Source of the DNA: Shigella phage SP21535
Sequence record: PQ615101
DNA: 64,000 nucleotides
Reading direction: 5' to 3' (one strand)
Both the position numbers and the translations under genes were made by a program. The notes beneath the pieces were generated by a model that was given only the letters and a program-made list of their open reading frames with translations, was not told where the DNA came from and made no database searches. Shown here in pieces: positions 1 to 8,022 of the stretch; position 1 is the stretch's first letter; the number at the start of each line of letters is the position of its first letter.

Positions 1-212
1 TCTAAACGGGGAACCTCTCTAGTAGACAATCCCGTGCTAAATGTTCTTTTGAACTAAATGCCTAACGACTATCCCTTTGGGGAGTAGGGTCAAGTGACTC
101 GAAACGATAGACATCTTGCTTCATCAAGATGGAGATATAGTCTGATCTGTATGGTGACATGCAGCTGGATATAATTCCGGGATAAGATTAACGACCTTAT
201 CTGAACATAATG
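1..212 (+). other. Group I intron, 3' portion (td intron); 5' end lies outside the window; no endonuclease ORF in the visible part
   Basis: Shares core blocks with the nrdB intron in this window (tagggtcaagYgactcgaaa, gatatagtctgRtctg, gaacataaYg at the 3' end). Ends in G at 212, immediately before in-frame thymidylate synthase C-terminal coding sequence. Confidence 0.75.
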
Positions 213-798: not shown

Positions 799-1065
799 TT
801 GATGTTAATATTCACCGTGGTACATTTTGGGGGAAATTACGTCGGTAAAGATGCTGGCAGCCTCCCGGCTGCCATTGAATTATTCAAAAAAGATTTTATA
901 CGTCGAATTAAATCCGGAGAAATAACTAAAGCACATTTAGAGCCTTTACGTGGAATGAGGCTAGGATGCACATGTAAACCAAAGCCGTGTCATGGTGATA
1001 TAATAGCTCATATAGTTAACCGATTGTTTAAAGACGATTTTCAAGTTGAGGACTTATGCAATTAA
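799..1065 (+). CDS. Hypothetical protein (88 aa), Cys/His-containing
   Basis: ORF ending in overlap with the nrdA start. Confidence 0.45.
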   Translation: MMLIFTVVHFGGNYVGKDAGSLPAAIELFKKDFIRRIKSGEITKAHLEPLRGMRLGCTCKPKPCHGDIIAHIVNRLFKDDFQVEDLCN

Positions 1066-3320
1066 TTAATGTTATCAAAAGTAGTGGTGTTTCTCAAAGC
1101 TTTGACCCGCAAAAAATTATTAAAGTTTTATCTTGGGCAGCTGAAGGAACATCTGTAGATCCTTATGAATTATATGAAAATATTAAATCATATCTCCGTG
1201 ATGGAATGACAACTGATGACATTCAGACTATTGTCATTAAGGCTGCTGCGAATTCTATTTCGGTTGAAGAGCCTGATTATCAATACGTAGCTGCACGCTG
1301 TTTAATGTTCGCTCTTCGTAAGCATGTTTATGGGCAGTATGAACCACGTTCATTTATTGACCATATTTCTTACTGCGTAAATGAAGGTAAATATGACCCT
1401 GAATTATTGTCAAAATATTCAGCAGAAGAAATTACATTTTTAGAATCAAAAATTAAGCACGAACGGGATATGGAATTTACTTATTCCGGGGCGATGCAAT
1501 TAAAAGAAAAATATCTAGTTAAAGATAAAACCACTGGTCAAATTTATGAAACTCCACAGTTTGCATTTATGACTATTGGAATGGCATTGCATCAAGATGA
1601 ACCTGTTGATAGATTAAAACACGTTATCCGTTTTTATGAAGCAGTATCTACTCGACAGATTTCATTACCAACTCCTATTATGGCTGGTTGCCGTACTCCA
1701 ACTCGGCAGTTTAGTTCATGCGTTGTTATTGAGGCAGGTGATTCGCTGAAGTCTATCAATAAGGCTTCTGCTTCAATTGTTGAATATATCTCCAAACGCG
1801 CTGGAATTGGTATTAACGTTGGTATGATTCGTGCCGAAGGTTCTAAGATTGGCATGGGTGAAGTACGCCATACTGGTGTTATTCCTTTTTGGAAACATTT
1901 TCAGACTGCAGTTAAATCATGCTCACAGGGTGGAATTCGTGGCGGCGCTGCTACTGCTTATTATCCTATTTGGCATTTGGAAGTTGAAAATCTTCTCGTT
2001 TTGAAAAATAACAAAGGCGTAGAAGAAAACCGCATTCGTCATATGGATTATGGCGTTCAACTGAATGATTTGATGATGGAACGATTCGGAAAGAACGACT
2101 ACATTACCTTGTTCAGTCCACATGAAATGGGTGGCGAGCTTTATTATTCTTATTTTAAAGACCAAGACCGTTTCCGTGAATTATATGAAGCCGCAGAAAA
2201 AGACCCTAATATTCGTAAAAAGCGTATTAAAGCCCGTGAACTGTTTGAATTGCTCATGACTGAACGCTCAGGAACAGCAAGGATTTATGTACAGTTCATT
2301 GATAATACGAATAACTATACTCCGTTTATTCGTGAAAAGGCACCTATTCGTCAGAGTAACTTGTGTTGTGAAATTGCTATTCCAACAAATGATGTGAATA
2401 GTCCTGATGCTGAAATTGGATTGTGTACCCTTAGCGCATTTGTGTTGGATAACTTCGATTGGCAAGACCAAGATAAAATTAATGAATTGGCAGAAGTTCA
2501 AGTTCGTGCTCTTGATAATCTGTTGGATTACCAAGGATATCCAGTTCCTGAAGCAGAAAAAGCTAAAAAGCGTCGAAATCTTGGTGTAGGTGTTACTAAC
2601 TATGCAGCTTGGCTGGCAAGTAACTTTGCTTCTTATGAAGATGCTAACGATTTAACACATGAACTATTTGAGAGATTGCAGTATGGACTCATTAAAGCAT
2701 CCATTAAGCTCGCCAAAGAAAAAGGACCTTGCGAATATTATTCAGACACTCGTTGGTCTCGAGGCGAATTACCTATCGACTGGTACAATAAAAAGATTGA
2801 CCAAATCGCAGCTCCAAAATACGTTTGTGACTGGTCGTCGCTGCGGGAAGACCTTAAGCTCTTTGGCATCCGTAATAGCACATTATCAGCACTTATGCCA
2901 TGTGAGTCATCTTCCCAAGTTTCCAACAGTACAAACGGTATCGAGCCTCCACGTGGACCAGTATCTGTTAAAGAATCAAAAGAGGGTTCCTTTAATCAAG
3001 TCGTGCCCAATATTGAACATAACATAGACCTATATGATTATACATGGAAATTAGCTAAGAAAGGTAATAAACCTTATCTTACGCAGGTAGCTATTATGCT
3101 GAAATGGGTATGTCAATCAGCTTCAGCGAATACATATTATGACCCGCAGATTTTTCCAAAAGGAAAGGTTCCAATGTCTGTAATGATTGATGACATGCTA
3201 TACGGATGGTATTATGGCATTAAAAACTTTTATTATCATAATACCCGCGATGGTTCTGGTACTGATGATTATGAAATAGAAACTCCTAAAGCAGATGATT
3301 GTTCATCCTGTAAATTATGA
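1056..3320 (+). CDS. nrdA: Ribonucleoside-diphosphate reductase alpha subunit
   Basis: 754 aa; N-terminal ATP-cone region, active-site Cys/Glu-containing core and C-terminal CxxC tail (DDCSSCKL) typical of class Ia NrdA. Confidence 0.95.
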   Translation: MQLINVIKSSGVSQSFDPQKIIKVLSWAAEGTSVDPYELYENIKSYLRDGMTTDDIQTIVIKAAANSISVEEPDYQYVAARCLMFALRKHVYGQYEPRSFIDHISYCVNEGKYDPELLSKYSAEEITFLESKIKHERDMEFTYSGAMQLKEKYLVKDKTTGQIYETPQFAFMTIGMALHQDEPVDRLKHVIRFYEAVSTRQISLPTPIMAGCRTPTRQFSSCVVIEAGDSLKSINKASASIVEYISKRAGIGINVGMIRAEGSKIGMGEVRHTGVIPFWKHFQTAVKSCSQGGIRGGAATAYYPIWHLEVENLLVLKNNKGVEENRIRHMDYGVQLNDLMMERFGKNDYITLFSPHEMGGELYYSYFKDQDRFRELYEAAEKDPNIRKKRIKARELFELLMTERSGTARIYVQFIDNTNNYTPFIREKAPIRQSNLCCEIAIPTNDVNSPDAEIGLCTLSAFVLDNFDWQDQDKINELAEVQVRALDNLLDYQGYPVPEAEKAKKRRNLGVGVTNYAAWLASNFASYEDANDLTHELFERLQYGLIKASIKLAKEKGPCEYYSDTRWSRGELPIDWYNKKIDQIAAPKYVCDWSSLREDLKLFGIRNSTLSALMPCESSSQVSNSTNGIEPPRGPVSVKESKEGSFNQVVPNIEHNIDLYDYTWKLAKKGNKPYLTQVAIMLKWVCQSASANTYYDPQIFPKGKVPMSVMIDDMLYGWYYGIKNFYYHNTRDGSGTDDYEIETPKADDCSSCKL

Positions 3321-4929
3321 TATAATTACCACAAGGATGTGGTTAACTAAGAATAACGCTATGTTTGATAATATATACAAAAACGGAAAGTTTCTTCCAT
3401 TTGGAGAAGAAAAACTTAAATCTAGACTAACAGAAGAAGATAAAGCTCTTCTAACTGATGGAATAGATTTTAAGCTCAATGTGTTCCAAATTATGGAAGG
3501 CATTGACATTAACGATCTAAAATGTGCAGTTTGTGGAAATTTCATTTCTCTGAAAACAGCAAAGAAACGTGTATTTCCAGCAACATGTAGTAAATCCTGC
3601 GCAGGGATATTTTTCGCGGATAAGAGAATTCAAAGCCGTGATACAAATTTTGGCGGAAAAGAAAAATATAAAAAATATTTGTCTGAACTTCAACACAAAA
3701 ATTCTTTAGAAAAATATGGAACAACTCATCAAAAAATTTCAAGAAATAAAAATAGAAAAACTTTAATTGAACGATATGGGGTAACGCATAATTCACAATT
3801 AGAAAGTGTGAAAGAAGCGAGAAAAGTTATAGAAAACGGTAAATCAGTTGATATTCTGCATTCTAGAAAATCTCGCGAAAAATCTAAGAAGACTAAATTA
3901 AATTGGACTGAAGAATATAAGGCATCGTTATATTCATCTATAGGAAAATCTATTAAAAATAACGGTCATATTAATCATGATATACTAGATAAAATCAATT
4001 ACAAAATTTCTATAGAAGAACTACAACAATTAGCAAATTGTTCTCGGATGACGGCTTATAGAGCTCTTTCATCCAAAGGACTAATTGACGTTCATTATAC
4101 TCAAAGTTCTATAGAGCAATTCATTTTAGATCTAGGATTTGATTGCGTAGAAACTAGAAAAATTATTCCTCCGTATGAATTAGATATTTACATTCCTGAG
4201 AAAAAATTGGCTATAGAATACGATGGAATTTATTGGCATTCTAGCGGGTCAAAGGAAACAGATAAAATTAAAGAAACTTATCATTTGATGAAGACAGAGA
4301 TGTGTGAAGCACAAGGAATTCAATTACTTCACATCTTCGAAAATGAATGGATTGATGATACAAAAAGAGAGATCTGGAAATCCATTATAAAGCATAAATT
4401 AGGATTATCAGAAAGAATACCAGCCCGAAAATGCAAAGCGCGTTTTGTTAATAAGGATGAGGCAAAAGAATTTATTAATAAGAATCATCTTCAAGGATTT
4501 TGCTCGGGAGCTCATACGTATAAAGGACTTTATTACAATAATGAGTTAGTTCAAATTATTTCTATCGGTAAATCTAGATATAGCACAGGTGATGAACTTT
4601 TAAGGATGTGTTCAAAATTGGGGGTTTGTGTTGTAGGAGGAGCCTCAAAATTATTAAAAGGAATTAATTGTCTATCTTATGGCAATCGAAGATGGTGCAG
4701 TACATTATCAAATGTTTATGACTCTGTCATGGAATTTAGTCATATCTCTGAGCCATGTTATTGGTACGTCGATAAAGGAGAGGTATTTCACCGCTCAAGC
4801 TATATGAAACATAAGCTTAAAAACAAGCTTAAAAATTATGATGATACAATAACTGAAGTAGAAAATTGTTATGCAAATGGTCTTAGAAGAATCTGGGACT
4901 GTGGAAATTTAGTTTACAGGACAAAATAA
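3295..4929 (+). CDS. Large endonuclease-like protein (Hef-like candidate) between nrdA and nrdB; start uncertain (alternative ATG at 3337)
   Basis: 530-544 aa ORF with Cys-rich N-terminal segment (CAVCGNF...ATCSKSC), repeated KYG-T-TH / RYG-V-TH modules, and a C-terminal segment YELDIYIPEKKLAIEYDGIYWHS resembling a PD-(D/E)xK / Vsr-like nuclease motif. It occupies the nrdA-nrdB slot where T-even phages carry mobile endonuclease genes. Confidence 0.6.
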   Translation: MIVHPVNYDIITTRMWLTKNNAMFDNIYKNGKFLPFGEEKLKSRLTEEDKALLTDGIDFKLNVFQIMEGIDINDLKCAVCGNFISLKTAKKRVFPATCSKSCAGIFFADKRIQSRDTNFGGKEKYKKYLSELQHKNSLEKYGTTHQKISRNKNRKTLIERYGVTHNSQLESVKEARKVIENGKSVDILHSRKSREKSKKTKLNWTEEYKASLYSSIGKSIKNNGHINHDILDKINYKISIEELQQLANCSRMTAYRALSSKGLIDVHYTQSSIEQFILDLGFDCVETRKIIPPYELDIYIPEKKLAIEYDGIYWHSSGSKETDKIKETYHLMKTEMCEAQGIQLLHIFENEWIDDTKREIWKSIIKHKLGLSERIPARKCKARFVNKDEAKEFINKNHLQGFCSGAHTYKGLYYNNELVQIISIGKSRYSTGDELLRMCSKLGVCVVGGASKLLKGINCLSYGNRRWCSTLSNVYDSVMEFSHISEPCYWYVDKGEVFHRSSYMKHKLKNKLKNYDDTITEVENCYANGLRRIWDCGNLVYRTK

Positions 4930-5604
4930 TGAGTACAGTTTTTAATACTAAACAGGTTGATGTTTTAAAAGAACCTATGTTTTTTGGTTCAGGTCTTGGA
5001 ATTGCGCGTTATGATATTCAACGACATAGGGTATTTGAAGAACTTATTGAACGTCAGCTCTCGTTTTTCTGGCGTCCTGAAGAAGTAAACTTGATGATGG
5101 ATGCTACTCAATTTAATAAGCTTCCTCAGTATCAACAAAATATTTTTACTAATAATCTGAAGTATCAATCATTACTTGATAGTATTCAAGGTCGTGCGCC
5201 GTCTGCTGTACTTATGCCATTGCTTTCAGACCCAAGCCTTGATACATGGGTTGCTACATGGACTTTTAGTGAAACTATTCACAGTCGTTCATATACTCAT
5301 ATCATGCGAAATCTTTATACTGATCCGTCAAAGGTATTTGATGAGATTGTATTAGATGAAGCTATCATGAAACGTGCTGAATCCATTGGACGTTATTATG
5401 ATGACGTTCTGATTAAAACCCGTGAATGGGAAAATGCTAAAGAATTTGTAGAACTAGCTAAAGAATCTCCTGATGCCGACTTTCGTTTAAACCGGGCTAT
5501 TAAGCAAGAAGCCGAAGCTAAACGTGCTTTAATGAAATCTCTTTACCTCTGTTTGCACGTTATTAATGCCTTAGAAGCTATTCGTTTTTATGTATCTTTT
5601 GCGT
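4929..5604 (+). CDS. nrdB: Ribonucleotide reductase beta subunit, exon 1
   Basis: Translation ends ...ALEAIRFYVSFA, the conserved NrdB helix; the frame is interrupted by the intron after gcgT at 5604. Confidence 0.85.
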
Positions 5605-5904
5605 AAAATGCGCCTTTAAACGGTAACGTTTATCGAAAACTCCTTTAATTGCTGGAAAGTCCTTTATAGGAAAACTAGCAGCCAAGGTTTTGCTTGCACC
5701 TTTAATTAGTATAATATGATTATACTTTTAAGAGGATGCACAATTGCAAAGCAAGGTTCAACGACTAGTCTTCGGACGTAGGGTCAAGCGACTCGAAATG
5801 GGGAGAATCCCTCTGGGATTGTGATATAGTCTGGTCTGCATAGTAATATGTAGCAGTTCATAAGAGAACGGGTTGAGAATTAGCGAGCTCAATCGAACAT
5901 AACG
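5605..5904 (+). other. Group I intron in nrdB, ORF-less (about 300 nt)
   Basis: Joining 5604 to 5905 restores the conserved NrdB sequence (VSFA-C-TFNFHKNMEIMEGNAK). The intron ends in G, shares core motifs with the td intron, and has no ORF of 60 aa or more. Confidence 0.8.
5688..5716 (+). promoter_or_regulatory. Middle-promoter-like element inside the nrdB intron (MotA-box-like ttTGCTTgcA, then TATAAT)
   Basis: Motif match only. It is followed by ATG and a 21-codon mini-ORF, possibly a remnant of a lost intron ORF. Confidence 0.25.
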
Positions 5905-6407
5905 GTACCTTTAACTTCCATAAGAACATGGAAATCATGGAAGGTAATGCCAAAATTATGAAGTTCATTGCACGTGATGAGCAACTTCATCTTAAAGGCA
6001 CTCAATATATTATTCGTCAACTTCAATCCGGTACTGATGGCGATGAATGGGTTAAAATTGCTCAAGAGTGTGAACAAGAAGCAGTTGATATTTTCATGGA
6101 AGTTAATCGCCAAGAAAAAGATTGGGCAGTTCATTTATTTAAAGATGGCGATGTTCCTGGATTAAATACAAATAGCATGTGGAGCTTTATTGATTACTTA
6201 ACTGTATCTCGTATGAAACAGTGTGGTCTTCCATGCCCAATTACCGATGCTCCGATTAAACATCCATATCCTTGGATTCGTGAATATCTTAATTCTGATA
6301 ATGTTCAATCCGCGCCACAAGAAGTAGAACTGTCATCTTACCTTGTTGCACAGATTGATAATGATGTTGATGATAAAGTTATGATGAGTTTTAAAAAATA
6401 CTTTTAA
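5905..6407 (+). CDS. nrdB: Ribonucleotide reductase beta subunit, exon 2
   Basis: In-frame continuation MEGNAKIMKFIARDEQLHLKGTQYIIRQL..., the radical/diiron-site C-terminal half of NrdB. Confidence 0.85.

Positions 6408-6434: not shown

Positions 6435-8022
<1,588 letters not shown>

Follow-up and report, generated by a model that had tools for sequence, protein, structure and literature searches.

A 300-nt ORF-less group I intron in the nrdB gene of Shigella phage SP21535, very probably derived from the T4/RB3/U5-lineage intron by deletion of I-TevIII

Positions 5605-5904 of the 64,000-nt stretch of Shigella phage SP21535 DNA analyzed here (sequence record PQ615101; "the window" in what follows) constitute a group I intron that interrupts nrdB, an identification supported by a covariance-model match, by a recoverable group I fold and by the exact restoration of the nrdB reading frame when the interval is removed. 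The intron is only 300 nt long and encodes no endonuclease. It is very probably the nrdB intron of the T4/RB3/U5 lineage, from which a single clean deletion, running from one copy of the 7-nt direct repeat ACAATTG to another, has removed the whole of the I-TevIII homing-endonuclease gene.

The window is Tequatrovirus (T4-like phage) DNA, and a 12-kb query taken from it is 96-97% identical to many Tequatrovirus genomes and identical to none. The genes that surround the intron and the structural elements within it are listed in Table 1. The ORF that supplies exon 1 ends in ...RFYVSFA with a TAA stop codon at 5604-5606, and T5604 is therefore the last base of the exon and A5605 the first base of the intron; in T4, too, an in-frame UAA overlaps the 5' splice site. 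The 3' end of the intron is G5904, a terminal guanosine (omega-G), and the 598-nt intron of T4 ends at the same position. Joining T5604 to G5905 and T5906 closes a codon that is split 1/2 into TGT, for cysteine, and the joined exons make an in-frame CDS of 1179 nt that encodes a 392-aa NrdB. Across the junction this protein reads ...RFYVSFA-C-TFNFHKNMEIMEGN, with no differences from T4 NrdB, and Pfam PF00268 (Ribonuc_red_sm) gives one uninterrupted match, covering residues 33-335, that spans the junction at residue 226. A natural control is provided by the intronless nrdB of phage N2, which reads TTTGCA/TGTACC where the joined exons of the window read TTTGCG/TGTACC, with one synonymous difference. 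The T4-like junction, the single Pfam match and the N2 allele agree that removal of 5605-5904 restores an intact nrdB. A first-pass annotation of this DNA had stopped the nrdB frame after RFYVSFA, resumed it at 5905, joined T5604 to GT (5905-5906) in a Cys codon and left a 300-nt intervening sequence ending in G, and these coordinates prove to be exact to the base.

Table 1. Genes, intron helices and leftover elements in and around the nrdB intron of the window
Feature	Position	Strand	Evidence or remarks
td intron, 3' end	1-164		group I intron, cut off; Rfam 50.7 bits
nrdA	1056-3320		gene order of the window
hef, 544-aa ORF	3295-4929	+	between nrdA and nrdB; Hef match to phage U5
nrdB exon 1	4929-5604	+	676 nt, last base U5604; ORF 4929-5606, spliced translation against T4 NrdB
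nrdB intron, group I, ORF-less, IA2-like	5605-5904	+	300 nt; Rfam RF00028
P1	5601-5613	+	exon GCGU with GCGC (internal guide sequence); MFE fold; 4 invariant pairs in 8 alleles
P2 hairpin, GUAA loop	5618-5631	+	compensatory double changes in 3 of 5 pairs
P3, 5' strand	5640-5645	+	pairs with 5800-5805; Rfam, MFE fold; 6 pairs, 100% paired
P4 (5650-5655 with 5675-5680) enclosing P5 (5660-5663 with 5668-5671)	5650-5680	+	Rfam, MFE fold; one compensatory pair in P5
P6/P6a, extended hairpin	5681-5757	+	MFE fold; 28 pairs, 95-100% paired in 8 alleles
Leftover middle-promoter-like element	5688-5715	+	TTTTGCTTGC, 12-nt spacer, TATAAT; motif positions
Leftover hairpin over I-TevIII Shine-Dalgarno	5699-5735	+	pairs C5699-G5735 to U5715-A5719; one compensatory change in SG1
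Deletion junction, single remaining ACAATTG	5740-5746	+	contains TTG 5744-5746, the annotated I-TevIII start
P7, 5' strand GACUA	5763-5767	+	pseudoknot with UAGUC 5827-5831; 5 invariant pairs; blocks common to td intron
P7.1 (5768-5777, UUCG loop) and P7.2 (5781-5794)	5768-5794	+	MFE fold; one compensatory pair in P7.2
P3, 3' strand (5800-5805), P8 (5806-5820), P7, 3' strand (5827-5831)	5800-5831	+	Rfam, MFE fold, pair list
P9 (5836-5853, GUAA loop), P9.1 (5856-5869), P9.2 (5871-5894)	5836-5894	+	compensatory pairs: one in P9, two in P9.2
nrdB exon 2	5905-6407	+	503 nt including stop codon; ORF list, spliced translation
denA (GIY-YIG domain)	6435-6845		downstream of nrdB exon 2
rnlA	from 6862		downstream of denA

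The group I assignment, also made in the first-pass annotation, is borne out by a covariance-model scan, in which Rfam RF00028 matches 5588-5853 over the full length of the model (1-253) with 69.1 bits (E 1.9e-15), above the curated gathering score of 50. The core blocks that the nrdB intron was said to have in common with the td intron are evident from alignment of the 3' part of the td intron (1-164) to 5759-5854, where the two introns share AACGACTA, GTAGGGTCAAG.GACTCGAAA and GATATAGTCTG. The unconstrained MFE fold yields P1, P3, P4, P5, P6/P6a, P7.1, P7.2, P8, P9, P9.1 and P9.2; its z-score of -2.4 is modest, as is expected of an RNA that is AT-rich and pseudoknotted. After P2 and the P7 pseudoknot had been joined to the MFE helices, 90 pairs were scored in an alignment of 8 alleles from which the ORFs had been excised where present. 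Standard pairs form in 99.6% of the 716 cells, and compensatory double changes are seen at nine pairs, of which P2 contributes three, P9.2 two, and P5, the leader hairpin, P7.2 and P9 one apiece. This number was reached by 0 of 500 shuffles; slid controls gave none. Several of these changes come from DCP80, the most divergent allele. Since the 8 alleles are closely related, most pairs of the core do not vary and hence are uninformative for covariation, so that P3, P4 and P7 draw their support from the Rfam model and not from covariation. All of the core helices expected of a group I intron are thereby recovered, with the compensatory changes in support. The P7 pseudoknot forms the guanosine-binding helix. 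Between P7 and the 3' strand of P3 lie P7.1 and P7.2, extra helices that we take to be typical of subgroup IA2, the type of the T4 td, nrdB and nrdD introns. P1 has only 4 pairs, among them a U5604-G5610 wobble at the 5' splice site, and for a P10 helix at most about 2 possible pairs can be found by eye.

If the intron acts as its T4 homologue does, the nrdB pre-mRNA would fold so that exogenous guanosine bound in P7 could attack after U5604, a base that its wobble pair with G5610 would hold in P1; exon 1, once freed, would then attack after G5904, and the exons would be joined to give the Cys codon and full-length NrdB. We infer this catalytic activity, guanosine-dependent self-splicing, from the 95.8% identity (BLAST) that the window intron shows outside the ORF to the T4 nrdB intron, whose self-splicing is established according to the passage of PMC2790892 that cites Gott, Shub and Belfort 1986. 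The alternative is that the intron is splicing-dead and nrdB a pseudogene, a condition that would be tolerated since the host ribonucleotide reductase can substitute. T4 has no strict requirement for its nrd genes, which would allow for such a relic, but both exons are open and in frame, the residues around the junction are 100% identical to those of T4, no core helix is disrupted, the substitutions that fall in paired regions are compensatory, and the core is identical to that of introns in many other isolates. A dead intron is therefore highly improbable.

The relationship of this intron to its longer relatives can be read directly from their sequences. It is 100% identical, in two pieces, to the introns of Lv5cm, FL12, FL23 and FL44 (BLAST), and an alignment with RB3, U5, T4, Lv5cm and SG1 indicates that the DNA missing from it is exactly the I-TevIII region, which in related introns is held in the P6/P6a arm, in the loop of P6a. 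Measured with the same exon anchors in each phage, the nrdB intron is 1091 nt long in RB3, 1083 nt in U5, 598 nt in T4 (the published value), 595 nt in Lv5cm, 420 nt in SG1, 309 nt in CJY920, 304 nt in each of PD112, CE1 and BYEP01, and 300 nt in the window. Two copies of ACAATTG are found in every ORF-bearing allele, at intron positions 142 and 927 in RB3, 136 and 919 in U5, 141 and 435 in T4, 136 and 431 in Lv5cm, and 136 and 257 in SG1; the window has one. In RB3 the I-TevIII CDS begins at the TTG inside the 5' copy. The 3' copy supplies codons for Asp-Asn-Cys, 13 codons ahead of the I-TevIII stop, and abuts the 3' strand of P6a, where G5746 pairs with C5693. With one copy at the start of I-TevIII and the other set against P6a, the deletion leaves the ribozyme core untouched and removes the maximum that could be removed without touching it. 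When the inter-repeat DNA is excised in silico, the U5 intron becomes identical to the window intron at 300 of 300 positions and the Lv5cm intron at 317 of 317, exon flanks included, and this base-for-base reproduction identifies the ORF-less intron as a repeat-bounded deletion derivative.

The same junction, ...GAGGATGCACAATTGCAAA..., recurs in five other phages of a collection of 50,697 records (six records in all), namely PD112, CE1, BYEP01, CJY920 and DCP80, and in each it is identical to that of the window. In none of the five is the intron annotated, and in those records that were examined nrdB is given as two CDSs. One record labels nrdB exon 2 as 'major capsid protein'. Exact-pattern scans with the 30-nt deletion junction returned 0 matches among IMG/VR viral contigs and 0 among JGI metagenome contigs, so that any estimate of prevalence is confined to isolate genomes. 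The recurrence of the junction also bears on the suspicion that the 300-nt form is an artefact of sequencing or assembly, produced by collapse between the ACAATTG repeats. Such a collapse would look like a repeat-bounded deletion, yet repeats of 7 nt are much too short to cause one and five phages sequenced independently of one another have the junction, which makes an artefact barely credible.

Much of what remains in the P6/P6a arm was once the expression region of I-TevIII. In the alignment with RB3, U5, T4, Lv5cm and SG1, positions 5688-5746 correspond to the 5' untranslated leader of the gene. Within it TGCTT (5691-5695) and TATAAT (5710-5715) are separated by a gap of 14 nt, and the first-pass annotation had called this pair promoter-like. 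The description stands insofar as the pair belongs to the leftover I-TevIII expression region; it fails for a sigma-70 promoter, a reading that was rejected on account of a consensus scan of 5500-6000 in which 0 sites were found. Preferred is the geometry of a T4 middle promoter, which TTTTGCTTGC followed by 12 nt and TATAAT presumably fits (MotA-box consensus). Both middle and late promoters have been described upstream of the T4 intron ORFs (PMC2988022). The leader further retains the I-TevIII Shine-Dalgarno sequence AAGAGG (5730-5735), with GAGG paired to CCUU in a hairpin, and a hairpin that sequesters the ribosome-binding site is the mechanism described for I-TevIII (PMC2988022). Absent from the hairpin loop of the window is the late-promoter motif TATAAATA, and the shorter loop without this motif is common to the window, U5, Lv5cm and SG1.

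These leftovers argue against a reading in which the ORF-less form is ancestral, predating the invasion of the intron by I-TevIII, with ACAATTG as the site at which the endonuclease gene was inserted. A short direct repeat does bracket the ORF, and the junction is found as well in the more divergent intron of a phage of another genus, DCP80 (Gaprivervirus), which is the most divergent of the ORF-less introns. The ORF-less alleles nevertheless keep signals that serve the endonuclease only (the promoter-like element, the hairpin, the Shine-Dalgarno sequence and the TTG), and DCP80 keeps the late promoter TATAAATA too. Outside the ORF there is zero divergence from the introns of U5 and Lv5cm; graded partial deletions of the ORF and a frameshift occur on the same backgrounds; and 7-mer repeats are common by chance in AT-rich DNA, the RB3 intron having 43 long-range pairs of them. 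Because the expression signals of the endonuclease remain and nothing has diverged outside the ORF, we consider an ancestral ORF-less form very unlikely, and loss of I-TevIII from an intron that once carried it is the reading that we retain.

Within the window intron no endonuclease ORF is found, the longest plus-strand ORFs being of 21 aa (5716-5781) and 26 aa (5744-5824), and of the gene for I-TevIII, an HNH endonuclease, only the leader and the last 13 codons are left, these codons doubling as P6a/J6-7/P7. The contrast drawn in the first-pass annotation with T4, as a phage whose intron carries the I-TevIII ORF, is correct for the window, in which no ORF exceeds 26 aa, but the T4 gene is itself truncated and defective and the intact gene is that of RB3, where I-TevIII is active. 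The same annotation suggested that a 21-codon mini-ORF might be what is left of an endonuclease gene since lost. A vestige there is, in the form of the I-TevIII leader at 5688-5746, with the ORF deleted between the repeats; the mini-ORF, however, is not a coding remnant of I-TevIII, and its position had been misstated as 5686-5780. As a gene it was rejected: its AUG lies within the loop of the hairpin, it has no Shine-Dalgarno sequence, it extends over just 12 codons in RB3 and its frame is not conserved. The 26-codon ORF was likewise rejected, since it runs from the I-TevIII TTG start into the ribozyme core in a frame other than that of I-TevIII, and this frame is not conserved either. Both mini-ORFs are regarded as accidental by-products.

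The route by which the ORF-less allele came to be in this genome we infer from comparisons among the alleles. Deletion on a U5/Lv5cm background is favoured, because the intron is an exact match, hef is common to the window and Lv5cm, and the nrdB exons of the window are closer to those of Lv5cm (98.2%) than to those of PD112 (95.8%), which is without hef. It is possible, if doubtful, that recombination or gene conversion instead brought the allele in from a donor already ORF-less and similar to PD112 or CJY920, a single ancient deletion having since spread onto different backgrounds. Six ORF-less alleles (the window, PD112, CE1, BYEP01, CJY920 and DCP80) have one exact junction, and the sole difference between the introns of the window and PD112 is a 4-nt indel in the hairpin loop. 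More generally, the loops of the other ORF-less alleles are longer than that of the window by 4 or 9 nt, and CJY920 and DCP80 differ from it in P2/P5 as well. CJY920 is itself a mosaic, with an SG1-type P2/P5, a DCP80-type hairpin loop and an RB3-type 3' half, and from such mosaics it follows that recombination inside the intron happens. Against a donor stands the fact that the window intron is the U5/Lv5cm allele minus the ORF, base for base and with the distinctive short hairpin loop included, together with the linkage of hef and the exons to Lv5cm. Moreover, few repeats would allow a viable deletion of the ORF (only 2 of the 43 pairs of 7-mers bracket it, and ACAATTG abuts P6a), so that independent deletions would converge on one junction. 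On these grounds a local deletion in a U5/Lv5cm-like ancestor appears to be the better account of the window allele.

With I-TevIII absent the intron cannot home by itself, and a candidate for its mobilization in trans is encoded next to it. The hef ORF of the window is intact, and its product is identical at 542 of 544 aa to the Hef of phage U5 (AY262133.2), which is annotated 'homing endonuclease'; in Pfam the protein has only a weak match, to PF18741 (restriction-endonuclease-like). Hef is reported to cleave nrdB in a passage of the review PMC2988022. T4 MobE is known to mobilize the defunct T4 nrdB intron in trans, with co-conversion over up to about 2 kb (PMC2790892), and T4 mobE has the genomic position that hef has in the window. 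Since 676 nt separate the end of hef from the site of intron insertion downstream of it, a distance within the co-conversion range of about 2 kb for which MobE is the precedent, hitch-hiking is plausible, and the intron may, with somewhat less than even likelihood in our estimation, be co-converted into intronless genomes when Hef cuts its target. Three phages with ORF-less introns (PD112, CE1 and BYEP01) have neither hef nor mobE next to nrdB, and N2 has hef together with an intronless nrdB; linkage to hef is thus neither required nor sufficient.

It is a more speculative thought, and one to which we give limited credence, that Hef took over the mobilization of the nrdB intron on hef-linked haplotypes, where I-TevIII would have become redundant and been lost repeatedly, the ACAATTG junctions being recurrent deletions under selection. 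Among about 14 hef-bearing phages none has an I-TevIII that is evidently intact. The frame is shifted in U5; about ten carry ORFs in introns of 587-599 nt, and SG1 has the intron of 420 nt; the ORF is missing from CJY920 and the window, and the whole intron from N2. If Hef did take over in this way, an ORF-less intron and a free-standing Hef would together be a working two-part mobile element, and the presence of the same junction in several lineages, another genus included, would reflect selection for the one microhomology that removes the ORF and spares P6a.

Viewed together, the alleles found at this one nrdB site present the fate of I-TevIII in successive states. The gene is intact in RB3, has its frame broken after about 52 codons in U5, bears three different internal deletions in T4, Lv5cm and SG1, and has been lost cleanly in the window and five other phages, while N2 has no intron at all. 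They document the natural decay of a single homing-endonuclease gene from beginning to end, in a series much of which lies on a hef-linked background and which could be used to ask whether a neighboring free-standing endonuclease relaxes selection on the intron's own endonuclease. The window allele is also a naturally minimized T4 nrdB ribozyme, and a 300-nt intron with exact splice sites permits the correct annotation of NrdB in genomes such as the short-intron genomes examined here, in which nrdB has been split into two 'genes'. Our literature searches turned up no paper on a T-even nrdB intron without an ORF, and a 2010 review (PMC2993671) describes all three T-even introns as encoding their own endonuclease genes. 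The intron nonetheless belongs to a known family, lies at a known site and is in a state known for group I introns, and its junction was already present, unannotated, in GenBank genomes. It is an example of the decay of a selfish gene and no new kind of element; it will not surprise the specialist and leaves our knowledge of group I introns unchanged, so that its value is mainly for annotation and teaching.

Among known introns the closest points of reference are those of T4, RB3 and U5. In T4 and RB3 the insertion site (after the U of ...UUUGCGU), the leader hairpin and the promoter region are as in the window, and the RB3 ribozyme is 100% identical to that of the window over the 3' 165 nt. 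These two introns differ from the window in having DNA that it lacks, 785 nt in RB3 and 294 nt between the repeats in T4, and in a hairpin loop that contains the late promoter TATAAATA, completed by 6 nt, ATAAAT, that are absent from the window. The hef-nrdB locus of U5 was reportedly treated by Sandegren, Nord and Sjoberg in 2005, a study cited in PMC2988022 and PMC2790892. U5 (AY262133.2) has the gene order of the window, nrdA-hef-nrdB(intron), and an intron identical to that of the window outside the ORF, including the short hairpin, which is the 'alternative' short I-TevIII hairpin of U5 in PMC2988022; it differs in that the I-TevIII frame, broken though it is in the deposited sequence, has been kept in U5 and the ORF is fully lost in the window.

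With respect to mobility, the nearest parallels are the MobE/T4 system and the collaborative homing of a free-standing endonuclease and an ORF-less intron (PMC3984707). In both, as here, the intron is non-autonomous, and the gene for a free-standing endonuclease that targets the same gene region is found no more than about 2 kb away; the partner in T4 is MobE, and in the window the candidate trans-mobilizer is Hef. A broader comparison is with the homing-endonuclease life cycle of invasion, fixation, degeneration and loss that has been discussed for phage (PMC2988022), which is a descriptive framework and not a family, and the stages of which are displayed by related genomes at the nrdB site.

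The gene for the homing endonuclease I-TevIII, which is intact in the nrdB intron of phage RB3, has decayed in several of the related introns. In the deposited sequence of U5 (AY262133.2, intron positions 136-919) its reading frame is open for ~52 codons from the TTG start and then stops, and the U5 intron lacks 2 nt relative to that of RB3 once a 6-nt hairpin-loop difference is discounted; on both counts the U5 endonuclease gene looks frameshifted. The introns of T4, Lv5cm and SG1 carry internal deletions of the gene, and the differences between their three junctions (see the table) show that I-TevIII inactivation is the outcome of several independent events. The ORF-less intron of DCP80, a Gaprivervirus, differs from the window intron by many substitutions, several of them compensatory, and still contains the late-promoter motif TATAAATA. 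Its nrdB exon 1 is incomplete in the record because a run of Ns lies just upstream.

Features of the nrdB region and of related introns
Feature	Source	Position	Detail
td group I intron, 3' part	window	1-164	Rfam RF00028, 50.7 bits
hef, free-standing homing endonuclease gene	window	3295-4929	542/544 aa identity with U5 Hef
nrdB, intronless	N2 (ON645936.1)	1933-3111	
nrdB intron, ORF-less	DCP80 (PQ671644.1)	about 2380-2700	same ACAATTG junction as window
I-TevIII internal deletion	T4		junction GGAAG / AACATAAG
I-TevIII internal deletion	Lv5cm		junction GGAAGACC / ACCATAAG
I-TevIII internal deletion	SG1		junction TTTGGATAGAT / TTAAATT

The deposited records of PD112, BYEP01, CE1, Lv5cm and SG1 divide nrdB between two CDSs and annotate no intron, and that of CE1 names exon 2 'major capsid protein'. 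The td intron is truncated by the start of the window.

Upstream of nrdB, the position of T4 mobE is occupied in the window by hef, the start of which overlaps the 3' end of nrdA (1056-3320). Hef has a single weak Pfam match (PF18741, 22 bits, under the cut-off) and relatives at 28-57% identity in Acinetobacter, Campylobacter, Vibrio, Dickeya and jumbo phages. Phage N2 carries hef together with an nrdB that has no intron, and two positions before the insertion site it has A (GCA) where the intron-bearing alleles have G (GCG). As this G pairs with C5611 in P1, the helix at the 5' splice site, the difference is compatible with the exon having adapted to the intron, or with a mark left by co-conversion.

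Exon 1 holds a divergent patch, 75-165 nt before the point of intron insertion, that may mark the edge of a mosaic segment or of a co-conversion tract. Here, at residues about 171-200 (window about 5439-5530), NrdB diverges strongly from that of T4, with indels included (EFVELAKESPDADFRLNRAIKQEAEAKRAL versus DMVEYYKDQGLILADKDVEQRAKRDL in the comparison with T4), and the remainder of the protein is near-identical to its T4 counterpart.
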